Shown here: one piece after another, positions 3,012 to 36,257 of the stretch | Layout of the letters: each line of letters starts with the position of its first letter | Numbering within the stretch: position 1 is the first letter of the stretch | IMG/VR virus record: IMGVR_UViG_3300017992_000019 | Span: 30,892 to 94,891 of that record | Source: a virus | Length of the DNA stretch: 64,000 bases | Strand: one strand, 5' to 3' | Program-made: the position numbers and the translations under genes | The notes under the pieces: model-generated | Database searches by the model: none | The model's input: only the letters and a program-made list of their open reading frames with translations | Told to the model about the DNA's origin: nothing

Positions 3012-5303
3012 ATGTGTGCTCAGAGAAGAATCGGACCCGTTCGCGGCGCAGGCGTTGCGATCGTGGAAAAGGAAGGCGACAAACCGATCGAGGCGGGAGC
3101 TCTTGGGTGGGCGGCGTATGCCGGGATTCTGGAAAAGGGCGACGTCGGCAAGCTGATCCAAGCGAGCTCGAAAAAGGCGTTCGAGAAAAAGTGCGGCGGG
3201 TATATCGACGACTCGTTGCTCCCGGATGCCTGTTTCGACTACTACGATCTCGCTCGCGGCGCCGGCGGTCTGTTGCTTGTGAGGGTCACCGACGGAAACG
3301 AGTTGCCGTCGGAGGTGACCTTGTATGCCCGACGCACAACTCAGTCGCCTATGGGAACGCTCAAGGCGAAAAACGGGGGTCGGTGGGGCGGCAAGGCTAA
3401 CAAGTACACCGACGACATGCCCAACGGCGGCGCGACCGACCTCACGAACACGACCCTCGACACCGGGCAGGCCATGAAAACCGACGAGTGGAAAGGCGGA
3501 TACGTCGAGCTCGCCGAGGTGCCGAATGTGCAGTATCCGATCATCGGCAACGACGACGCCGGCGTGATCACCGTCGCCGCGGATCAGACCATGCTCGACG
3601 ACTGGACGGCCGGAGGCGCGACCGACGATCGGTTTTATCTTGTGCTCGAAAACGAGGGCAAGATGCTCTCCTATGAGATCCGCGACGGCGAGGAGAATCC
3701 CGACACCGAGTTCGGGCTTTTCATTTATGTCGACGGCGCGCTCGCGAACAATTGGGCCAACCTGTCGACCGATCCCGCGTCGCCGAGGTATTGGGTCAAC
3801 GTGATCAACAACGACGGCAACAACGCCGAGATCGAGGTCGTCGATCTCTGGACCGGAGCACACGTCGCGGACGTCCGGCCGGCGAATCACTACGGCGAGA
3901 TCGACACCGTGACCGCGACGGTCTTGACCGCGGTGATCCATGAGTTCAACCCGGCCGCGACCGGAGACGGCAACGGCACGTGTGCGCTCGGGACCACGAC
4001 CGACGACATGGTCGCGCAGACCTTGACGATCACTTTCACCGACCCGACCACATACGACGTCGTCTCCGACAAGTTCGGCACGGTCGCGAGCGGTGAGACC
4101 GTCGGCACTCAAACGGATCCAAACAACAAGTGGACACCTCCGTTCACCCTCACGGCCGGAGCGACCGCATGGGAGGCCGCGGACGTCGCGACCTTGACCT
4201 ACAAGCCGTTCGTGCCGGACTCGTTGATCGACGGGTACGTGTACCCGGACAAGGTCAATGCGAAGCGTGAGAAGTATCGGATCGTCGACAACGATCACGA
4301 CACGATCACCGCGGCACCGGGATCCGACCTCACCGTGAGCGGCGCGCCGGCCGACGAGTTCCTCGTCGTCGCTCCGCTGGAAATGGAGGGAGGCCGCGAC
4401 GGGATCGCCGACCTCACCGACGCGGACTATATCGCCGCGTGGGACACCGCGACCTCGTTGTTCAATCAGATCCACGGCAAGAATCTCGGGCTTGTGAAAA
4501 TGGCAACGCCGGGGATCACCTCGACCGCGGTGCAGAAAGCCGGGATCGCATACGCCGACGCGAAAAACCATCAGTATCGGATCGAGGTGCCGGACACGAC
4601 CACGACCGAGGAGTCGGCGGATCTGTACGTCAACGACACGATCGGGCGTTCCGATTTCGCCGTCGTGAATTTCCCGTCGTATGCGTATGTCACCGATCCC
4701 GACGACGACGGATCGGGCAAGCGCAAGCTCGTCTCATGCACCGGCATGATCCACGGCCGGGAGGCGCGCACGGCGGTCGACTACACCGGGTATCACAAGG
4801 CCGGCGCCGGCGTCGATCAGATCCTCCCGTCGATCCTCGAGCTCCCGACGGGAGACACGATCCTCGACGAGGAGTATCTCAACCCGCTCGGGATCGGTCT
4901 GATCAAAAAGGTCAAGGGCAATTTCGTCCTGTGGGGCGATCGCACCTTGCACGTCGATCCCGCGTGGAAGTGGAAGCATCAACGCGAGATGCTCTCGTAT
5001 TACGAGAACGTGCTCCGCGAGTCGTTCGACTGGATCATTTTCATGATCAACGATCCGGTCACCGAGAAAATGGCGCTCACTTCCATGAAAACCTTTTTCC
5101 TGCCGGAGTGGCGCAAGCGTGCGCTCCGCGGCGACACTTTCGAGGAGGCGGCGCGGATCAAGATCGACAGCGAGATCAACACCGACGTCGTGCGCGCGGC
5201 CGGCGAAATGTACGCGCAAGTCGCGTTGCAACTGGCCGACACCGTCGAGCGGTTCATCATCGAAATCGGCAAGCAGGGAATTTTCGAGTCGGTTGCCGCG
5301 TAG
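3012..5303 (+). CDS. Contractile tail sheath protein
   Basis: AAGGAGG SD then ATG 3012; C-terminal sheath motifs 'LNPLGI..I..VKG.FVLWGDRTL', 'IND..T', 'ERFIIEI'; large central insertion. Confidence 0.92.
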   Translation: MCAQRRIGPVRGAGVAIVEKEGDKPIEAGALGWAAYAGILEKGDVGKLIQASSKKAFEKKCGGYIDDSLLPDACFDYYDLARGAGGLLLVRVTDGNELPSEVTLYARRTTQSPMGTLKAKNGGRWGGKANKYTDDMPNGGATDLTNTTLDTGQAMKTDEWKGGYVELAEVPNVQYPIIGNDDAGVITVAADQTMLDDWTAGGATDDRFYLVLENEGKMLSYEIRDGEENPDTEFGLFIYVDGALANNWANLSTDPASPRYWVNVINNDGNNAEIEVVDLWTGAHVADVRPANHYGEIDTVTATVLTAVIHEFNPAATGDGNGTCALGTTTDDMVAQTLTITFTDPTTYDVVSDKFGTVASGETVGTQTDPNNKWTPPFTLTAGATAWEAADVATLTYKPFVPDSLIDGYVYPDKVNAKREKYRIVDNDHDTITAAPGSDLTVSGAPADEFLVVAPLEMEGGRDGIADLTDADYIAAWDTATSLFNQIHGKNLGLVKMATPGITSTAVQKAGIAYADAKNHQYRIEVPDTTTTEESADLYVNDTIGRSDFAVVNFPSYAYVTDPDDDGSGKRKLVSCTGMIHGREARTAVDYTGYHKAGAGVDQILPSILELPTGDTILDEEYLNPLGIGLIKKVKGNFVLWGDRTLHVDPAWKWKHQREMLSYYENVLRESFDWIIFMINDPVTEKMALTSMKTFFLPEWRKRALRGDTFEEAARIKIDSEINTDVVRAAGEMYAQVALQLADTVERFIIEIGKQGIFESVAA

Positions 5304-5336
5304 GTGTTCCGGTAGGGGGGGATCGGGAGGCCGATC

Positions 5337-5567
5337 ATGGTAGACGTGAAAAAGCAACGCGGACAAGGCGGGCCCCCGCAACGACAGGGCGGCAAGGCAA
5401 CTTGCGAATGTCCGAAGTGTGGGTTTGTCATGGAACACACCGAGCGCGGAACACCTTGCATCAAATTCAAGTGCCCGAAGTGCGGCGCCACGATGGGACC
5501 GCCCGGAGGCGAGCACGGATTCAAAAAAGAGGAAACCAAAAAAGGTTTTTGGGACGGCGTGATCTAG
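5337..5567 (+). CDS. Small double zinc-finger protein (CxCPxCG..H..G.PC....CPxCG)
   Basis: GGAGG SD; conserved Cys/His spacing. Confidence 0.6.
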   Translation: MVDVKKQRGQGGPPQRQGGKATCECPKCGFVMEHTERGTPCIKFKCPKCGATMGPPGGEHGFKKEETKKGFWDGVI

Positions 5568-5603
5568 CGTCGCACCGAAACGAAAAAACAAGGAGGATCA
5601 GTC

Positions 5604-5813
5604 ATGGCGGTAACACTGAAAAAGTATGTGGGAGACGGCGGCGCAGGTCTTGACGACTCAATGGGATTCGACAACCTGTACGACGTGCTCAAGGCACTCG
5701 CCGACGCGCAAAACGATCTGGTGACGCAGTTCAATCAGTTCCGGGCCGACTACAACGCGAGCACGGTGCCGACGACCTCGACCGATTTGGCGTCGGCCGT
5801 GACCGTCGAGTAG
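5604..5813 (+). CDS. Small virion-associated protein (head/tail fibre-like helix)
   Basis: AGGAGG SD; 'LVTQFNQFRADYN' helix. Confidence 0.45.
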   Translation: MAVTLKKYVGDGGAGLDDSMGFDNLYDVLKALADAQNDLVTQFNQFRADYNASTVPTTSTDLASAVTVE

Positions 5814-5871
5814 GCAACTCAACCCGGTCAAAGGATCTTGTAGAGGGATCCTTGCCGAAAGGAGAAAGGCA

Positions 5872-6309
5872 ATGAAAGGCGTATTGCAGAAAGATCACAT
5901 CCCGGTCAACAAGTATCAGTTGCTTGTGCTCGGGATGCCGGCGCTAACCTTCACCGAGATTTCGGGGATCGAGGAGGAGTTGCAGACGACCGAGCTCCCG
6001 GATCGCACGACCGCCAGTGGAGGGCACACGGGCCCGGTCGAGTTCACCGCGCAAACTCCGCTCTGGCATACGATCGAGCGGATCGCGCTCGAGGCGTGGC
6101 TCGTCGAGGGACAGGATCCCGTTTCGCCTCTTTACAAAAAAGAGGCGACCCTTGTGTTGCAGTCGATCTCGGGACAGACGATCGCGACCTACTCAATGCT
6201 CGGGTTGTACGTGAGCAAGAGAGGTCTCCCGGATCTCGCAATGGAAAACGAGGGCGAGGGCGCTTTCATCGAATGGACTTTCAAAGCGGATCAGTTGCTC
6301 CCGGTCTAA
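5872..6309 (+). CDS. Tail tube protein (T4 gp19/eCIS tube-like)
   Basis: 'FTEISGIEEE', 'KKEATLVL', 'LPDLAMENEGEGAFIEWTF' pattern; 145 aa; follows the sheath. Confidence 0.85.
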   Translation: MKGVLQKDHIPVNKYQLLVLGMPALTFTEISGIEEELQTTELPDRTTASGGHTGPVEFTAQTPLWHTIERIALEAWLVEGQDPVSPLYKKEATLVLQSISGQTIATYSMLGLYVSKRGLPDLAMENEGEGAFIEWTFKADQLLPV

Positions 6310-6379
6310 CCGTCGACGCAACGACCCCGCAAGGTTTTGACCTATCAAGATCGCTCCGGCGATCGATTGGAGGTAAACC

Positions 6380-7210
6380 ATGCAACCCAACGAACCCGGA
6401 AACAAGATCAATCGGACAACCCTCGGCGAGCACGGTTTGAAGCTCCCGATCGGTGTTCTCGACAGCAAGACCGGAAACCTCGGCAAGGTTTTCGAGGTCC
6501 GGCCGTGGCGCCTCAAAGAGGAACGCGAGATCGGAAAGATCCGAGCGGCCAACGAGCACGCCTCGGTCGCGGAGTATGTCGCAATGGTCCTCGCGACCAT
6601 GTGCATACGATTCGGCAACCACGATTTCGAGAAAATGAAATTCGAGGAGCGACGGTTGCTCCTTTCAACCGCGTACATGGCCGACGTGTTTTATGCTTAC
6701 GTGTGGTTGAGAAAAGACGCGGTCGGAAACGAGTTGAAACTCGATCTCACGTGCGGGAGTTGCCGGTCGAAATTCGATTTCGTCGGAGACCTCAACTCGG
6801 TCGAGGTTGGCTCGATCGACAAGATTGACGACGGAAATTGGTCGTACAAGCTCAAGACGCCGATCGAGATCCGCGGCAAGCTGATCGGCGAATTCAAGCT
6901 CGGCCCGGCGAGGTGGAACACTCTCGAGACGATCCCGGCCGGCACTCGTCGGTTCGATACTGGCGCCGCGAAGTCGGCGATCATCCGGGGATCGATCATT
7001 GAGCTCGGCGAGCTCGGAGCGATCCCGGTGACCGACAACGAGCTTGACGAGCTCACGAAATACGATCTCGAGCGGATCACAACCCTGATCAACGATCGAC
7101 CGATCGGCCCGACCATGTCGGTCGAGGGCAAGTGCACCTCATGCGGAGCACCTTTCGAGCACGCGATCGAATGGGCGACCGATGATTTTTTCGCACCTTC
7201 CTCGAGTTGA
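6380..7210 (+). CDS. Tail assembly chaperone with two internal CxxC repeats
   Basis: Lies between tube and tape measure; CGSC and CTSCG motifs; ends just after a slippery TTTTTTC. Confidence 0.75.
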   Translation: MQPNEPGNKINRTTLGEHGLKLPIGVLDSKTGNLGKVFEVRPWRLKEEREIGKIRAANEHASVAEYVAMVLATMCIRFGNHDFEKMKFEERRLLLSTAYMADVFYAYVWLRKDAVGNELKLDLTCGSCRSKFDFVGDLNSVEVGSIDKIDDGNWSYKLKTPIEIRGKLIGEFKLGPARWNTLETIPAGTRRFDTGAAKSAIIRGSIIELGELGAIPVTDNELDELTKYDLERITTLINDRPIGPTMSVEGKCTSCGAPFEHAIEWATDDFFAPSSS

Positions 7211-20844: not shown

Positions 20845-22077
20845 ATGGCAGAGAAAGGGCGAATTCTCCGACCCGATCGCGAGAGTGCGGGTCAATACGG
20901 AACGCCGAAAGTCGAAAAGGCCGAAGCGATCGACGAGCTCACCGTGCGGGTTACTTTCGATCAGGACATGGAACGCGACGACTCGGGCGCGACCGACGAC
21001 GCGACCAATCCGGCAAACTACACTTTCGTCGTGACTGGCGGTGTTTCGGTCTCGGCCGTGTCGTGCTCGGTTGCTCGAGACTTCCCGACGTGGATCGATA
21101 TCACGCTCAACCGGGAAATGACCGCGAGCTCACAGATCGAGGTCACCGTTGCGTCGACGGTCAAGTCGAGTCGCGGCGTCAACATGGATCCGAATTACGA
21201 CTCGTATGAGTTCACCGGGTACGGTATCCGGCCGACAGTCGACAGCGCAACGGCCGTCGACGGGGTGATCGTGTACGTCGATTTTGACGAGGATATGAAT
21301 CAGAACGCCGCGTTGACTCTTGCGACGAATTACGTGCTCACCTCGCCGACCGATCCCACACCTCCCGGCGTTGACGAGGTGCGGATCCAAACGGGCTCGA
21401 GGGTCGAGCTCTGGCTCGACTCTGCACTCGAGATCGGCGACGACTACACGGTCACCGTGAGCAACGTCGAGGATCTCGCCGGAAATCCGATCCAGGGACC
21501 ACCCAACAACCAAGCCGATTTTGTCGGTGTTGCGATCGTGACCAAGCTCGAGAGCGCGGTGCCTCGAGACGAGAACACCGTGCGGTTGACTTTCGATCGA
21601 CAAATGAAGCGTGCGGATCTCGCCGACATTGGCAATTTTACACTCGAGCCGATCGAGGCCGGCGCCGCGATTCTGTATTACAGCGGCGTTTTGTTGCCGG
21701 CCGACACATACCCGACTTATGTTGATATCGTGTGTTCCGAAATGACCGACGGGAAAGACTACCGCGCGACGGTCGACCCGTCGGTTCGGGATAAATGGGA
21801 CAACACGATCTCACCGCTTTTCGATACGCAAGATTTCGAGGGTGTCGGGACCGAGCCGAGGATCGTTCGGGTTGTTGCGTCGACTCTCAACAAGTGCACC
21901 GTCGTTTTCGACGAGAGCATGAGAGACAACGCCGACCTCCGGGATCCGGCGCGGTATTCATTTGACAAGGGGTTGCAAGTTCTAGCGGTGCTCGACGTGC
22001 GAGGGAGCGAGGTTGATCTCTCGACGTCCGAGCAGACAGCCGGGGAGCTCTACACCTTGACGATCTCGCAACCGTAG
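20845..22077 (+). CDS. Virion protein with four Ig-like (Big) domains
   Basis: Four repeats of 'V..A.A.....V.V.FD..M......NY/F'; 'YTVTVSNVEDLAGN' Ig motif. Confidence 0.8.
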   Translation: MAEKGRILRPDRESAGQYGTPKVEKAEAIDELTVRVTFDQDMERDDSGATDDATNPANYTFVVTGGVSVSAVSCSVARDFPTWIDITLNREMTASSQIEVTVASTVKSSRGVNMDPNYDSYEFTGYGIRPTVDSATAVDGVIVYVDFDEDMNQNAALTLATNYVLTSPTDPTPPGVDEVRIQTGSRVELWLDSALEIGDDYTVTVSNVEDLAGNPIQGPPNNQADFVGVAIVTKLESAVPRDENTVRLTFDRQMKRADLADIGNFTLEPIEAGAAILYYSGVLLPADTYPTYVDIVCSEMTDGKDYRATVDPSVRDKWDNTISPLFDTQDFEGVGTEPRIVRVVASTLNKCTVVFDESMRDNADLRDPARYSFDKGLQVLAVLDVRGSEVDLSTSEQTAGELYTLTISQP

Positions 22078-30899: not shown

Positions 30900-31135
30900 G
30901 ACGGGATCGACCTCCCGGCCGGGAGGGATCCAGCCGGGCACCCGGCCGGACTCCCACCGGGCCCCGGGCCGATCCAGCCGGGCGCCGGCGACCTCGAGGC
31001 CGACCTCCCGGCCGGGCCGGACTCCCACCGGCACCCACCGGCACCCACCGGCACCCACCGAGATCCACCGGCCGGATCCCTGATCTCGGGTCGAGCTCGA
31101 GGCCGACGGATCTTTTTTCGGGTTTTTTCGGGCCC
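30900..31135. repeat. GC-rich interspersed and tandem repeat region
   Basis: cgacctcccggccggg x2, gatccagccgggc x2, ggccggactcccaccgg x2, (cccaccggca)x3 plus a partial copy, ttttttcggg x2. Confidence 0.85.
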
Positions 31136-31484
31136 GGATCGCGGGTGCTCGTTGTGTGGTGCTCTGTGGCGCCTCACAGGACGGGCCGAGATCCGGGCGC
31201 AAACCCCGTGCCAGGCAGGGCCCCGGATCCCGGGAGACCGGGCGCGCCAGAATAGGCGCCTCGAGACGTCTCTCCGCGTCTCCTACGCTTGCCGGGCCGG
31301 ACACGACCCGACACCCCGGATCCCAGGCCGGAGGCCGCACAGGGCCCGCAATCGCCTCGCGCGAATTTCCCAAACAAAACGAGGCACTTACAAGAGGGTG
31401 AGCGAAAACTCGTTTTCGGTCAAGGGGTTGGCCGCTTGCAAGTATGCGTTCCGTAAGTGGAAAACGTACCGGCGAAAATAGTTG

Positions 31485-31513
31485 TTGCAATACGCGAAAC
31501 GGTGCCGTATACT
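31485..31513 (+). promoter_or_regulatory. Sigma70-type promoter
   Basis: TTGCAA-17 bp-TATACT with an A-rich upstream segment. Confidence 0.7.
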
Positions 31514-31547
31514 GTAAACATGAGGCCGGAGACCAAGACAAGCCCGA

Positions 31548-31567
31548 AACTGTGCAACGGCACAGTT
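31548..31567. promoter_or_regulatory. Dyad, putative enhancer (UAS) or operator
   Basis: AACTGTGC-aacg-GCACAGTT perfect 8-bp inverted repeat; second TGT-N8-ACA at 31597-31610. Confidence 0.55.
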
Positions 31568-31689
31568 CTTGCCCTGGATCCCCTACCTCGCAAAAATGTT
31601 CAAAAGCACACTATGAAAAATGTACTTTTTACACACCGTTTCTGCACCGCGTCACGGGCTAACTCGCTGAAACATAAGAGTTCAGGAGT

Positions 31690-31705
31690 TGGCACGCGGT
31701 TTGCA
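31690..31705 (+). promoter_or_regulatory. Sigma54 (RpoN) -24/-12 promoter
   Basis: TGGCAC-GCGGT-TTGCA, exact consensus spacing, in the AT-rich intergenic region. Confidence 0.8.
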
Positions 31706-31716
31706 GTAACATACTA

Positions 31717-32087
31717 ATAGTTGCTCATTGACAAAGGAACGGCGAAGCGAAGCAGGGACGGCCGGAAACAGTCCCACCGGGGCAACCCTCCCGGAGCTAG
31801 CAGGAAACACCGAGACCAACAAAAGCTAGTGTGACCCTACGGGGCACGGGTAGACGGGCGAAGCAAGGAGGAGCCGACAATGCCTCCGAGACCCGGGCGA
31901 CGAAACGGCCACATGACAAGCATGGGGCACGAGTAAAAAAGAGAGACGGCCGGCGAGAGTCGGCCACATGGGCGCGCACCGCGAGGCGGTCGCCGCGAGG
32001 TCGTACCTCGGCGCGCTCCTTTTGAGAGTTGAGAGATTGAAACCCTTTTGACCTTGTCGCGGACAAGGAAACCTTTTGGAGGATACC
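31717..32087 (+). ncRNA. Long structured 5' leader or candidate ncRNA
   Basis: About 370 nt without a credible gene; hairpins ggccggc-gaga-gtcggcc, accgc-gag-gcggt, cgagg-tcgta-cctcg, ccttgtc-gcg-gacaagg. Confidence 0.45.
31722..31734 (+). promoter_or_regulatory. boxA-like antitermination element
   Basis: TGCTCATTGACAA, 11/13 match to rrn boxA TGCTCTTTAACAA, just after the predicted sigma54 start. Confidence 0.5.
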
Positions 32088-33029
32088 ATGACCGCTAATA
32101 TCGAAACCCTGAAGTCTCAGACCTTCGGCGTCGAAATTGAATTCGTAGGTTGCACCCAGGAACGCGCCGCTCGCGCGGTGCACTCCGTTGTCGGCGGTCG
32201 GATCTTCGACCGCACCGTCGTTGCTCCCGACGGTCGCAAGTGGAAAGTCGTCTCCGACGGGTCGGTCGCCGGTGTCGGCGGCGAGCTCGTGACTCCGGTC
32301 CTCAAGTACGACGACATGGAAACCCTGCAAGAGGTCGTGCGGGCCATGCGTCGCGCCGGTTGCCGCAAGCACTCCTCGGCCGGTATTCACGTGCACGTCG
32401 GCGCTCGCGACATGACCGCCAAGCAGATCGTCAACGTGGTCAAGACTTGGAATCGGCAGGAACGGATCATTGTCAAGGCGCTCGACATTGAGGGTCGCAC
32501 CTACGGCACCAACGGTGCTCGCACTTGGGCCGCGTCTGCAAACCGCGACGTGATCCCCCGGATCCTCCGGTCCAAGCCTAAGACCATGAACAAGCTCGCG
32601 GCCGCTTGGTACGGCGAGAGCAACTATGAGTCGCGCACCTATCGCAAGTATGACTCGAGCCGGTATCACGCGATCAACCTGCACAACCTTTTTTATGGGT
32701 CGCACGGCACCATCGAATTTCGTTGCTTCAACTCGACCATGCACGCCGGCGAAATCCGCTCCTACGTCGTGCTCGCTCTCGCAGTCGTCGCCAAGGGTCG
32801 CAACGGCCGCGGCGCCTCGGTTGAGCAGCGCGCTTTCAATCCCGAAACCGCGAAATTCGATTTTCGCCAGTGGATGATCAAGCTCGGCATGATCGGCGCC
32901 GAGTTCAAGAATGTCCGCAAGCACCTTATGAAGCGCCTCCCGGGATCCTCCCGGTCGGCCAACACTGGCCGGACTCGCGGCGGTCACGCTCGCCGGAACA
33001 ACAACGTCGAGAATCACGCGAGCGTGTAA
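32088..33029 (+). CDS. Amidoligase (COOH-NH2 ligase type 2)
   Basis: 'TFGVEIEF', 'WKVVSDGSV', 'ELVTPVL', 'SAGIHVHVG', 'RYHAINL', 'GTIEFRCFNST'. Confidence 0.92.
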   Translation: MTANIETLKSQTFGVEIEFVGCTQERAARAVHSVVGGRIFDRTVVAPDGRKWKVVSDGSVAGVGGELVTPVLKYDDMETLQEVVRAMRRAGCRKHSSAGIHVHVGARDMTAKQIVNVVKTWNRQERIIVKALDIEGRTYGTNGARTWAASANRDVIPRILRSKPKTMNKLAAAWYGESNYESRTYRKYDSSRYHAINLHNLFYGSHGTIEFRCFNSTMHAGEIRSYVVLALAVVAKGRNGRGASVEQRAFNPETAKFDFRQWMIKLGMIGAEFKNVRKHLMKRLPGSSRSANTGRTRGGHARRNNNVENHASV

Positions 33030-33063
33030 GTCAACCTCAACCCCGGGCGCTCCGGCGCCCGGG

Positions 33064-33130
33064 TGTCGAAACGCCGGCAACGCGCCGGCGTCTATCGGGG
33101 ATCGCCTCCCGATACTGACGAGACAGGCGA
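33064..33130 (+). ncRNA. Type II hammerhead ribozyme with pseudoknot
   Basis: tgtc-GAAA-cgccggc/gccggcg-TC^-tatcggg/cccgata-CTGACGA-gaca; loop I tcgcc pairs with 3' ggcga; predicted cleavage after C33092. Confidence 0.92.
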
Positions 33131-33158
33131 CGACAAGGAAACCGAAAAGGAGGAAACC

Positions 33159-33551
33159 ATGTCTTGCAAAGTGTTCGTGTATGGCACGCTCCTCGAGGGC
33201 GAGCCGAATCACAGGGTGCTCGGCGACTCCGAGCTCCTCGGCACCGCGACGACTCGGCCGGCTTTCCGGTTTGTCGATTGCGGATACTACCCGGCCGCAC
33301 TCACCGACGGCGAAACGGCGATCGTCGGCGAGGTCTACCGGGTCAACGACGAGACGCTCGAGGATCTCGATCGTCTCGAGGGTGTTCCTCGGTTGTACCA
33401 GCGCAAGCGGATCAAGCTCGCCGACGGATCGGTTGCTTGGATCTACTTGCTCAACCCCGAGGGTTACTACGGCCGGCGCGAAATGCCGGCGATCGAGTGC
33501 GGCGACTGGCGCGCGCACCTCGACGCGAAATACGGCGCGGCCGCGTCGTGA
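33159..33551 (+). CDS. Gamma-glutamylcyclotransferase (AIG2/YtfP-like)
   Basis: 'VFVYGTLLEGEPNH', 'GEVYRV....LEDLDRLEG.P.LYQR', 'I..GDW'. Confidence 0.92.
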   Translation: MSCKVFVYGTLLEGEPNHRVLGDSELLGTATTRPAFRFVDCGYYPAALTDGETAIVGEVYRVNDETLEDLDRLEGVPRLYQRKRIKLADGSVAWIYLLNPEGYYGRREMPAIECGDWRAHLDAKYGAAAS

Positions 33552-33561
33552 GGAGGAAACC

Positions 33562-33795
33562 ATGACACCCGAAATCACAGTCGAGCAGAGACGGAAGTAC
33601 AGAGAGATCGACACCCGGAATCTCCGGGCGATCTTCATTGCCAACCCGCGCGGCGAAATGCGGCGCATCTTTCCGAAAGCGGCACGACAGGGAATCGGCG
33701 CTCGGAGCGTGAGCGAGATCGTCGTGTGCTTGATCCACGTCGGCGAGCTCAAGGTCGACACCGACTCCGGCCGGTATGAGTGGATCGGAAACTGA
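33562..33795 (+). CDS. Hypothetical small protein (winged-helix-like)
   Basis: AGGAGGAAACCATG start. Confidence 0.55.
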   Translation: MTPEITVEQRRKYREIDTRNLRAIFIANPRGEMRRIFPKAARQGIGARSVSEIVVCLIHVGELKVDTDSGRYEWIGN

Positions 33796-33810
33796 AAAGT
33801 GTTCGAGATA

Positions 33811-33893
33811 GGGGATCCCGGTATCCGGCCCGACAGGCATTGACTCCCAATGTCTCGCGTTTCCCCGACGCGACGGCCGGCGCCGGGATCCCC
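33811..33893 (+). ncRNA. Stalked double-hairpin element (family B, copy 1)
   Basis: 11-bp + 6-bp stalk enclosing ggcattg-actcc-caatgtc and tcgcgt-ttccccg-acgcga. Confidence 0.6.
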
Positions 33894-33902
33894 ACTTTAT
33901 CA

Positions 33903-33962
33903 TTTCCGAGGGAGGAATCGCAACCCTCCCCGACTTGTGTCCCGGCGATACGGGATCGGAAA
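33903..33962 (+). ncRNA. Three-way-junction motif A, copy 1
   Basis: P1 tttccga/tcggaaa; P2 gggagg/cctccc; junction CGACTTGTG; P3 tcccg/cggga. Confidence 0.75.
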
Positions 33963-33998
33963 CCCAAACAGGCAAGGAAACCTTGCAAGGAGGAAACC

Positions 33999-34325
33999 AT
34001 GCACGACTTTGACATGAGAAAAAGACGGATCCGAATGACCCTCGAGGAGACGAGGAAAAAGATCGTCGAATTCGCAAACAAGAACGACGTCGGTTTCGAC
34101 TTTCACGAGCCCGACTGTCCCAACGGAGTCAAGGCCAAGGTCCGCGGGATCTGCTTTGACAACGCGCACGGCGATCACGGCGGCGAGTACACGACCCGCA
34201 CCGGCAAGCGGCGCGGTCCTTACGAAATGATCGTGATCCTCACCGACGACGACGGCAACAAGATCCGCGTCAACCTCGCGACGCTCTTTGCGCTCGCGAC
34301 AATGGATCACCGGAACAAGTTGTAG
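33999..34325 (+). CDS. Hypothetical protein
   Basis: AAGGAGGAAACCATG start. Confidence 0.65.
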   Translation: MHDFDMRKRRIRMTLEETRKKIVEFANKNDVGFDFHEPDCPNGVKAKVRGICFDNAHGDHGGEYTTRTGKRRGPYEMIVILTDDDGNKIRVNLATLFALATMDHRNKL

Positions 34326-34334
34326 GAGGGCGCC

Positions 34335-34664
34335 ATGAGTGCACAAGCAAAATGGAGGGAGCTCGCGGTGAGGTTGAGCTCGGCGTTCGTGACCGAGTAT
34401 CGGGTGAGCGGAAAACTCGACAGGCTCGTTTCGCGCACCGCGAATTTTATCCTCGAGGATCCCGAGAACAACGAGTCGGTCGCGGCCGGGCATATCAAGA
34501 TCGAGCTCGAGGAGGATTATCGCGACATGCTCGGGTATTACAAAGACACCCAAGACGAGATCAAGCGGTTGACGATCGAGCTCGGATTCGAGCTCGCGAT
34601 CGCGGCGTTTGTGGTCTCGGTCAAGAGCGCGGCCATGCGTCGCGTCAAGGAGTGCCGGCAATGA
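34335..34664 (+). CDS. Hypothetical protein
   Basis: GGAGG SD; helical ORF. Confidence 0.6.
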   Translation: MSAQAKWRELAVRLSSAFVTEYRVSGKLDRLVSRTANFILEDPENNESVAAGHIKIELEEDYRDMLGYYKDTQDEIKRLTIELGFELAIAAFVVSVKSAAMRRVKECRQ

Positions 34665-35185
34665 AACCGAAAACCATATTACGCAAGGGCCGGCGCGACT
34701 ACGGCCGGCCGAGTCTCAACGAAACACTCAAGCTCGGCGTGTTGGTCTTTGCCTACGGGAGCAACCTCGACGTCGATCAGATGTTTCGCCGTTGTCCCGA
34801 CTCGCTCGTCGTTGGTCCGGCGTTCCTCCCGGGATACTCGCTCGAGTTTGTCGGGCACTCCCGCGGGTGGGCCGGCGCCGTCGCGAATGTCTACAAGTCG
34901 AGCCGAGGGTGTAACGTGCCGGGCATGGTCTACCGGGTGACACCGGAGGATCTCGCGCACCTCGACGCTTGCGAGGGTGTGCCGTACACATACGAGCGGG
35001 TCAAGGTCCGGGTGAAAATGTTCGACGGCAAGCGGCGCACCGTGCACGTGTATCTCCGACAGGGAGATCCCGAGCTCGGGTATCCGTCGGTCCGATACTT
35101 CCGGGCGATCTATCGCGGTTACATGCTCTGGCAGTTTCACACAAACCACATTACCCGACTGTTTCGCGCGGCCGGGTATTCATAA
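34661..35185 (+). CDS. Second gamma-glutamylcyclotransferase
   Basis: 'VFAYGSNLDVDQM.RRCP', 'LDACEGVPY.YER', 'PS..YF..I..GY'. Confidence 0.9.
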   Translation: MKPKTILRKGRRDYGRPSLNETLKLGVLVFAYGSNLDVDQMFRRCPDSLVVGPAFLPGYSLEFVGHSRGWAGAVANVYKSSRGCNVPGMVYRVTPEDLAHLDACEGVPYTYERVKVRVKMFDGKRRTVHVYLRQGDPELGYPSVRYFRAIYRGYMLWQFHTNHITRLFRAAGYS

Positions 35186-35198
35186 GAAAGGAGATTGA

Positions 35199-35257
35199 CC
35201 TCGCGGAGAGCTCGTCGCGGAGCTCTCCGACTTTTGCTCCGGCGTAGGAGCGCGAGG
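35199..35257 (+). ncRNA. Three-way-junction motif A, copy 2
   Basis: P1 cctcgcg/cgcgagg; P2 gagagctc/gagctctc; junction CGACTTTTG; P3 ctcc-ggcgta-ggag. Confidence 0.75.
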
Positions 35258-35281
35258 GAAACGAAAACCAAGGAGGGAATC

Positions 35282-35659
35282 ATGCCCGCACATTGTCAAA
35301 CGGAAATGTACGACGACCGCAACCCGCTCGCGAAGTGGCGGATCACTCACTCATGGATCGAGGAGGTCGGCGTCGTGGGAGACGAGAGAAAGAAAACCCC
35401 GATCGACGTCGTCGGCCCGAGGACTTGTCCTCCCGACGAGGACGATCACAAATTCAAGTGGACCGAGTTTCGGATCTACGACGACGACGGCGAGCTCTAC
35501 TATGAGGGGATCATGAACGAGCATTGCGAGGGGCTCGACCCGCTCGACGACTTCGGCACGCCGAATGCCGGCGCGACCGAGTTGCGGATCAAGGTCAAGG
35601 ATCAGGAGTGCCCGACGTGCAAGGGCACCGGCAAATGCGACCGTTGGGAAACGGTCTGA
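35282..35659 (+). CDS. Hypothetical protein with C-terminal CxxCxGxG
   Basis: 'FRIYDDDGELYYEG...PLDDFG.PNAGATE' conserved phage-type motif. Confidence 0.65.
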   Translation: MPAHCQTEMYDDRNPLAKWRITHSWIEEVGVVGDERKKTPIDVVGPRTCPPDEDDHKFKWTEFRIYDDDGELYYEGIMNEHCEGLDPLDDFGTPNAGATELRIKVKDQECPTCKGTGKCDRWETV

Positions 35660-35672
35660 AAGGAGATCGGTC

Positions 35673-36257
35673 ATGGTACGGTTACCGATACGGGTTCCGA
35701 CGGCCGAGGAGAGGTACAACGAAAAGCTCGAGTTGATCGCACGCTTCGCGCACGTGCCGGAGTCGGTCGTGCGCGCCTTGCATCGATCCTACATGAGAGT
35801 CGGCCGGATGAAATGCTACACCGACGGCGGGCCGGTCACGCGCAAGCATCGACGGGCCGGTCACGACAGCATGAGAAAGCGCGCGCTCGACGAGCTCCGG
35901 CGCACGATGCTCGAGATCCTCGGCGGTCCTTTCGCCGGGTCAAGCGCGTTGTGGTATCGCGGTCTCCGCGAGCAAGCTCACGCCGATCGCGCGTGGTCGT
36001 TGCTCAATGACCTCGTCGAGGCATACGACGCGCGGCGCGAGCACGACGGTTTGTGTTCCCCGGAGACGATCGCGAAAGTGATCCACGATCACATGAGCAA
36101 GGATCAGCGGCGCGGGTATTTCCGCGAGCAATTTTTCGGCGACAACGCTTTCGAGGAGATCCTCGGAAAGGTCAAGCTCCCGGACTTCTCGCACTTGCAC
36201 CTCGCCGAGATCCTCGACGCTCTCGAGAGTCTCTTGTATCCCAACGCGGCCGAGTGA
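35673..36257 (+). CDS. Hypothetical protein
   Basis: AAGGAG SD, ATG 35673. Confidence 0.6.
   Translation: MVRLPIRVPTAEERYNEKLELIARFAHVPESVVRALHRSYMRVGRMKCYTDGGPVTRKHRRAGHDSMRKRALDELRRTMLEILGGPFAGSSALWYRGLREQAHADRAWSLLNDLVEAYDARREHDGLCSPETIAKVIHDHMSKDQRRGYFREQFFGDNAFEEILGKVKLPDFSHLHLAEILDALESLLYPNAAE

Follow-up and report, generated by a model that had tools for sequence, protein, structure and literature searches.

Cleavage by a hammerhead ribozyme leaves a 2′,3′-cyclic phosphate on one product and a 5′-hydroxyl (5′-OH) on the other. Phage messages are also divided by protein, and in the early operon of T7 RNase III cuts intergenic RNA structures, so that each upstream mRNA is left with a 3′ hairpin that stabilises it.

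Hammerhead clusters, with two to four ribozymes close together, have been described in prophages of Agrobacterium tumefaciens, Azorhizobium caulinodans and Clostridium scindens; multiple hammerheads flank individual prophage genes, and the role proposed for them is the cutting of long transcripts to gene-length mRNAs (PMC3088659). Processing of the polycistronic transcript has likewise been proposed for hammerheads that flank the genes of prophage operons (PMC3088659; PMC6765202). This processing by bacterial hammerheads is a suggestion awaiting proof, and the purpose of the bacterial and phage ribozymes is a still-open question (PMC6765202).

The locus described here lies in an uncultured phage (IMG/VR record of 94,891 bases, estimated to be 94% complete), from which a stretch of 64,000 nucleotides, hereafter the window, was analysed. 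By its sequence, window 33064–33132 reads as a canonical, complete type II hammerhead, located in the 129-nt spacer between an amidoligase gene and a gene of the GGACT/AIG2-like gamma-glutamyl cyclotransferase family. It shares with the members of RF02276 (Perreault et al. 2011, PMC3088659) the core, the permutation in which stems I and III are capped and stem II is open, and the pseudoknot, as well as a phage, intergenic and same-strand context. Nothing structural separates it from those members, whereas its occurrence as a single copy rather than in a cluster is different and the 9-bp hairpin that abuts it is uncommon. As in the prophage clusters, the ribozyme stands between co-oriented phage genes; this genome, however, has one hammerhead and is not a case of clustering, and the next gaps of the operon hold an unclassified RNA motif instead. 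The locus is a fresh instance of an element that phages have been known to carry since 2011, involves no new mechanism, and adds one clean type II hammerhead to the thousands known.

Our main reading, to which we assign a probability of roughly 0.8, is that this hammerhead splits the amidoligase–GGACT message between C33092 and U33093, probably to uncouple the two genes. We infer co-transcription, activity in vivo and any effect on stability or translation.

Anatomy and detection of the hammerhead

The elements of the ribozyme (Table 1) follow one another in the type II order, that is, the 5′ strand of stem II, GAAA, stem III, H17, stem I, CUGANGA and the 3′ strand of stem II. The invariant core is complete (C3 U4 G5 A6 N7 G8 A9, G12 A13 A14, A15.1–U16.1 and H17) and corresponds column for column to RF02276, with CUGACGA at 33115–21, GAAA at 33068–71, U33091 and C33092. 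Hammerheads have been accepted on the basis of an invariant core together with intact core-closing pairs (PMC3088659), and all of these pairs are intact here: U33093–A33114 (1.1–2.1), G33122–C33067 (10.1–11.1) and A33071–U33091 (15.1–16.1). Stems I, II and III comprise 8, 4 and 8 bp with no mismatch; stem III joins A33071–C33078 to G33084–U33091, and stem I joins 33093–33100 to 33107–33114 by seven Watson–Crick pairs and one G·U. Within loop I, UCGCC at 33102–06 is fully complementary to GGCGA at 33126–30 over five Watson–Crick pairs, and the pairing begins at the first nucleotide past stem II. From this complementarity a pseudoknot between loop I and the 3′ tail is predicted, a tertiary contact that most type II hammerheads have with 4 bp or more and that is needed for fast cleavage at 0.5 mM Mg2+ (PMC3088659).

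Table 1. Positions of the ribozyme, its neighbours and the structured RNAs with which it is compared (positions with no locus prefix are those of the window)
Feature	Position	Strand	Basis
Candidate sigma-70-like promoter TTGCAA-17-TATACT, upstream of the amidoligase leader	31485..31513	+	consensus scan only
Amidoligase_2 gene, ORF of 317 aa (called product P0001, 313 aa)	32076..33029	+	PF12224 E 4.8e-50; phrog_2443
Amidoligase stop codon TAA	33027-29	+	sequence
9-bp G+C-rich hairpin, loop UCCG	33042..33063	+	sequence; in MFE fold
Type II hammerhead	33064..33132	+	RF02276 full model match; descriptor
Stem II, 5′ strand TGTC	33064-67	+	sequence
GAAA core strand	33068-71	+	sequence
Stem III hairpin, 8 bp, A15.1-U16.1 included, loop AACGC	33071..33091	+	sequence, fold
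C17, predicted scissile phosphate between 33092 and 33093	33092	+	Rfam alignment (GUC, then stem I)
Stem I hairpin, 8 bp	33093..33114	+	sequence, fold
Catalytic core strand CUGACGA (C3-A9)	33115..33121	+	sequence; aligned to model CUGAUGA
Stem II, 3′ strand GACA	33122-25	+	sequence
3′ tail GGCGA, loop I pseudoknot partner	33126..33130	+	sequence
Shine-Dalgarno AAGGAGGA	33147..33154	+	sequence
GGACT/AIG2-like gamma-glutamyl cyclotransferase-family gene, 130 aa	33159..33551	+	PF06094 E 4e-27, residues 5-118
Unclassified three-way-junction RNA, four copies	33903-62, 35199-57, 36274-336, 38917-69	+	shared design
L029-clade type I array	L029:3892-3944, 4386-4443		relaxed descriptor
L029-clade type I array	L072:2920-2976, 3872-3928, 4331-4387, 4729-4797		relaxed descriptor
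L029-clade type I array	L314:3395-3463, 4163-4233, 5108-5167, 5836-5888		relaxed descriptor
AGCUUYCAAAUCAAG leader	L311:3382-3491, L307:3385-3519, L313:3382-3482 and relatives

When both strands of the whole 64-kb window were searched with cmscan against all 4227 Rfam families, RF02276 (Hammerhead_II) aligned end to end (model positions 1–66) to 33064–33132 on the + strand; the match scored 48.5 bits, where the gathering score is 37, with E 6.6e-7. It was the sole match above a gathering score in the window, where nothing credible beyond Hammerhead_II was found at E ≤ 1. RF02276 searched alone against the whole 94.9-kb record gave one match (E 2.3e-10), Hammerhead_1 gave none in that record, and the 31 kb outside the window had no Rfam match at E ≤ 1; the ribozyme is the single Rfam-detectable RNA and the single hammerhead of this phage record. 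A strict descriptor that is independent of Rfam, consisting of the exact core and three perfect stems, recovers the ribozyme at 33064–33125 with stems III, I and II of 8, 8 and 4 bp, and only the type II form of the descriptor fits, types I and III failing to do so. In RNAfold predictions for 33030–33165 (z = −4.46 versus shuffles), the minimum free energy and centroid structures are both compatible with a hammerhead and form stems I and III as well as the hairpin upstream.

The initial annotation had called a complete type II hammerhead between amidoligase and GGCT-type genes, and the Infernal score above the cut-off, the descriptor match and the Pfam assignments of both neighbours uphold that call. 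The core, the three stems and their coordinates can be read from the sequence as it had given them, and the cut that it predicted after C33092 agrees with the Rfam alignment.

A pattern built on the consensus stem III of the family (CGAAACGCC...GGCGUC...CUGANGA) matched more than 118 IMG/VR contigs, often repeatedly per contig, and in the matched contigs the descriptor confirmed 129 type II hammerheads. Stems I, II and III in this set usually have 6–8, 3–4 and 5–8 bp, a distribution within which the 8, 4 and 8 bp of the window ribozyme fall. At least five Watson–Crick pairs joining loop I to the stretch of 10 nt past stem II were present in 28 per cent of the 129 and in 2.7 per cent when tails were shuffled; the 5-bp pseudoknot, also foreseen in the initial annotation, falls in this enriched class.

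Some hammerhead-like RNAs have been reported to be inactive, and a chance G+C-rich look-alike that is catalytically dead might be imagined here as well; however, the inactive cases had deviations in the core (PMC3088659), of which the window ribozyme has none. It also stands 11.5 bits beyond the curated threshold, with an E value obtained against all of Rfam, and the strict descriptor had no second match in 0.56 Mb (the window and related loci). A dead look-alike is accordingly an extremely improbable explanation, and we consider it highly probable that the RNA self-cleaves in vitro.

Flanking genes and the proposed split of the message

The product of the upstream gene matches phrog_2443, 'amidoligase enzyme', with E 7.9e-69, and 465 amidoligase homologs were found at E ≤ 1e-20. 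All plausible neighbouring genes share the + strand of the ribozyme. The consensus scan found no other promoter-like site on this strand between the candidate upstream of the amidoligase leader and the ribozyme, and the interval from the amidoligase stop to the GGACT start held neither a promoter-like nor a terminator-like site; co-transcription of amidoligase, ribozyme and GGACT would be the simplest reading. The Shine–Dalgarno sequence AAGGAGGA belongs to a GGAAACC...AAGGAGG leader that the phage places ahead of several genes.

The listed open reading frame 33063..33551 opens with GTG and engulfs the ribozyme. The GGACT Pfam domain begins at residue 37 of that frame, or residue 5 when numbering starts at ATG 33159, and the ortholog in the metagenomic locus L083 begins at the equivalent methionine (MHTVFVYGTL there, MSCKVFVYGTL here). 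Because of the position of the domain, four residues past the ATG, and the start of the ortholog, the gene start is corrected from 33063 to 33159, and the N-terminal extension is false, as had been suspected from the sequence. No Pfam-supported frame on either strand needs the ribozyme stretch, and the small frames that overlie it lack any Pfam match. An antisense frame of 654 aa (31797..33761, − strand) spans the amidoligase gene, the ribozyme and the GGACT gene and has no Pfam match; the most suitable interpretation is an artefact of high G+C content, whose apparent conservation in relatives mirrors the sense genes.

Further downstream, the 277-aa product of 34352–35185 (+) carries in its C-terminal half a second GGACT/AIG2 domain (PF06094 E 1.9e-14, phrog_2520), has an N-terminal half of ∼130 aa with no family match, and is also kept in L083, L029, L034 and L079. 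A gene for a UvrD-type helicase comes after it. Neither tblastn of the amidoligase and helicase against cultured phages (at most 39 per cent identity, to phages of unrelated hosts) nor a scan of genome contigs (three matches only, to metagenome-assembled genomes) pointed to a host. Outside the window, a 95-nt tRNA-Pro(CGG) was called at L363:1818–1912 (−), about G000 21718–21812, antisense to phage genes; it is unusually long, and an intron or a mis-call is possible.

Immediately upstream of the ribozyme, and directly abutting the 5′ strand of stem II, is the 9-bp hairpin CCCGGGCGC-TCCG-GCGCCCGGG (33042–63). If this hairpin ended transcription of the amidoligase gene, GGACT would be transcribed separately and the hammerhead would rarely be part of a polycistron. 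That arrangement could draw on the strength of a G+C hairpin that starts 13 nt past the amidoligase stop codon, and on L083, where a short hairpin likewise spans the stop codon. It is nevertheless very unlikely, as the hairpin is followed by UGUCGAAACG and not by a U-tract, is absent from the calls of the terminator scan, and is not succeeded by any promoter-like site before GGACT. With no U-rich tract within 0–2 nt, 33042–63 was rejected as an intrinsic (rho-independent) terminator.

The abutting hairpin was also rejected as a trait of the type II family: hairpins whose end lies no more than 3 nt from stem II accompanied 8.7 per cent of phage type II hammerheads and 7.9 per cent of control positions. 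The only abutting hairpin of 9 bp among those surveyed is that of the window. Mispairing is possible between CCGGCGC in the hairpin (33052–58) and GCGCCGG in the 3′ arm of stem III (33082–88), and could slow folding of the ribozyme.

The steps by which the message would be split, as in our main reading, can be laid out from the predicted structure. Once transcribed, stems III and I would fold as hairpins, the 4-bp stem II would close the three-way junction, and loop I would pair with the 5 nt past stem II and hold stems I and II parallel, after which the 2′-OH of C33092 would attack its own 3′ phosphate. The upstream amidoligase mRNA would then have a 3′ end formed by stem III and a 2′,3′-cyclic phosphate, with the 9-bp hairpin behind, and the downstream GGACT mRNA would carry its 5′-OH on the first base-paired nucleotide of stem I, about 55 nt before the Shine–Dalgarno sequence. 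The two parts could thereafter differ in stability, with the downstream ribosome-binding site in a fixed context, and the likely purpose would be a host-independent uncoupling of the first gene from those that follow it in the operon. In the initial annotation the protection of the amidoligase mRNA had been assigned to the 9-bp hairpin; the hairpin is present, but the first 3′ barrier would instead be stem III, which ends 1 nt ahead of the cut, the 9-bp hairpin lying 29 nt further upstream.

From the type II topology, and in contrast to type I, both products are predicted to end in a hairpin cap, and such ends fit a stabilising, insulating role. The outcome would be analogous to that of processing in the T7 early operon, although the T7 sites need a host protein enzyme and yield other end chemistry, whereas the window RNA would cut itself. 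For a host of proteobacterial type, the suggestion in the initial annotation that the 5′-OH would make the downstream mRNA a poor substrate for RNase E is plausible. The odds that cleavage raises or insulates downstream expression appear to us about even.

An effect in the opposite direction would be expected if an RNase J-type 5′ exonuclease acted on the 5′-OH product, such that an active ribozyme lowered expression of GGACT and the later genes. In work attributed to Collins et al. from 2007, RNase J1 reportedly acts on the 5′-OH product of glmS cleavage. The glmS ribozyme resembles the element described here in being a bacterial self-cleaving RNA within an mRNA; its 5′-OH product decides the fate of that mRNA, and its cleavage in Gram-positive hosts is followed by degradation of the message by cellular RNases (PMC6765202). 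It is, however, metabolite-dependent, located in a 5′ UTR and destabilising for its message, and there is no sign of a ligand for the window ribozyme. Lowered expression is unlikely here, where the new 5′ end would itself be base-paired, opening an 8-bp hairpin that lacks a single-stranded overhang, and where the strong Shine–Dalgarno sequence and conserved leader suggest that GGACT is meant for good translation. A 5′-terminal hairpin without an overhang generally hinders nucleases that depend on the 5′ end.

Relatives of the locus and of the ribozyme

Metagenome runs from five studies, of sediment and of seawater, contain the ribozyme-bearing stretch, and its DNA is letter-identical across the four runs that were compared, with no variant in the ribozyme. 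In one sediment run (X6), which contains only 8 per cent of the words of the stretch, a 43-nt contig resembles window 33096–33131 with four differences; it takes in the stem I and core part of the ribozyme and may represent a related hammerhead in another phage. There was no match to window 31000–36000 among GenBank phages by blastn, and single-protein searches of viral and metagenome contigs gave no close relatives for the amidoligase and one match, at 41 per cent identity, for GGACT. The closest amidoligases, P0002 and P0003, are 89 and 71 per cent identical to that of the window.

The nearest syntenic relative found is L083/L084, in which the amidoligase, the GGACT protein and the second GGACT protein are 52, 60 and 49 per cent identical to those of the window (L083 module at 4653–6988 of metagenome contig Ga0180437_10017359). 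The amidoligase–GGACT spacer is only 30 nt there and consists of a short hairpin and a Shine–Dalgarno sequence, with no hammerhead by Rfam or by the descriptor. Because the L083/L084 module does without it, the ribozyme is dispensable for an amidoligase–GGACT module; on the sequences compared it would have been gained or lost within the lineage of this phage, and it may be a recent gain. L083/L084 is a natural minus-ribozyme comparator, and the same module with the ribozyme (the window phage) and without it (L083/L084) offers a natural comparison. With junctions matched in this way, the effect of cleavage on the stability and translation of the flanking genes becomes directly testable.

It might be supposed from the same relative, with its 30-nt spacer, and from the presence of a lone hammerhead in the genome, that the ribozyme is a recently acquired and near-neutral passenger, cleaving or not, that is kept only through its youth. 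We regard this as rather unlikely. No flaw is seen in the core, in any of the three stems or in the 5-bp pseudoknot, the ribozyme shares its frame of stop codon, RNA, leader and ATG with four other structured elements of the operon, and another amidoligase clade has hammerheads at this very junction (both described below). Splitting of the message remains the reading that we prefer.

A general linkage of type II hammerheads to amidoligase or GGACT genes was unsupported in the samples tested. Among 118 phage loci with type II hammerheads, none had a GGACT gene and only two had an amidoligase, in both cases distant and about 1 kb off, and none of 50 other amidoligase-bearing phage records had a Hammerhead_II match above the cut-off. 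A weak match of 19 bits in one record (G050) was rejected because it lacks the CUGANGA core. A literature search, outside which lay the ribozyme-associated gene lists of Roth 2014 and Weinberg 2015, found nothing that links a hammerhead or other ribozyme to amidoligase.

Structured RNAs at equivalent junctions

Many of the 90–160-nt spacers that follow the stop codon at 171 distinct amidoligase loci hold both CUGANGA and GAAA. With a relaxed descriptor that tolerates one unpaired nucleotide beside stem II, a type I hammerhead was found within 120 nt past the amidoligase stop at 42 of 245 loci, which represent 25 distinct type I sequences starting 0–42 nt past the stop. These ribozymes are confined to one clade: they are present at 24 of the 38 distinct loci that share 55 per cent or more amidoligase identity with L029, and at none of the 137 distinct loci with a more distant amidoligase. 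Thus about two thirds of the members of a distant clade carry a type I hammerhead at the junction occupied in the window by a type II ribozyme, the amidoligase of the window being 41 per cent identical to that of L029. Members with type I hammerheads include L029, L034, L051, L072, L079 and L304–L319.

Further type I copies are frequent, often 2–4 per locus at a spacing of about 0.4–0.9 kb (examples in Table 1; others are in L079, L310, L312 and L316), and the resulting arrays punctuate an accessory operon headed by the amidoligase gene, an arrangement that matches the prophage one of Perreault et al. 2011. An alignment of 34 type I sequences, comprising the amidoligase-adjacent copies and neighbouring ones, has an invariant core and double compensatory changes at 11 of 15 stem pairs. 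The clade hammerheads nevertheless score below Rfam thresholds (RF00163, 23 bits versus 34). Their stem I, CCCGC/GCGGG, is open, and the stem II loop (GGCA/GGCU) can pair with an AGCC just 3′ of stem I. No other known ribozyme class was found in 20 amidoligase loci picked for their long downstream spacers.

The clade and the window share the position of the ribozyme past the Amidoligase_2 stop, at the same junction and followed by a leader and a Shine–Dalgarno sequence. They differ in that the clade has the type I permutation, usually in arrays, and the window a single type II ribozyme. Because stem I of type I is open, almost all of the ribozyme would stay with the upstream product after a cut in the clade. 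The presence of post-amidoligase hammerheads of different permutation in two distant lineages amounts to two independent events, a pattern that is suggestive although it is not statistically strong.

In the operon of the window itself, the four copies of the unclassified RNA share a layout of P1, a P2 hairpin, an invariant CGACUUKUG strand, a P3 hairpin and P1′. Their stems covary, with double changes at five of the eight P2 pairs. Each copy follows a stop codon and precedes the GGAAACC...AAGGAGG leader of the next ATG, the same slot as that of the hammerhead, and in the L029 clade the equivalent positions are taken by the hammerhead arrays. Even with the limit relaxed to E ≤ 10, no Rfam family matched the motif (searched in a 1.2-kb slice), and about 2.6 Mb of other loci yielded no further copies. 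One could speculate that the hammerhead is the recognisable one of five operon cassettes, that the other four belong to a new self-cleaving or processing class which substitutes for hammerheads, and that the 3′ boundary of the amidoligase gene is a convergent ribozyme site; taken together this is a long shot. The three-way-junction RNAs are, in any event, a more novel lead than the hammerhead.

In the L029 clade, the type I hammerheads have a conserved AGCUUYCAAAUCAAG leader, followed by a Shine–Dalgarno sequence, on either side of them, a pattern that looks like insertion of the ribozyme into a standard 5′ leader or duplication of the two together.
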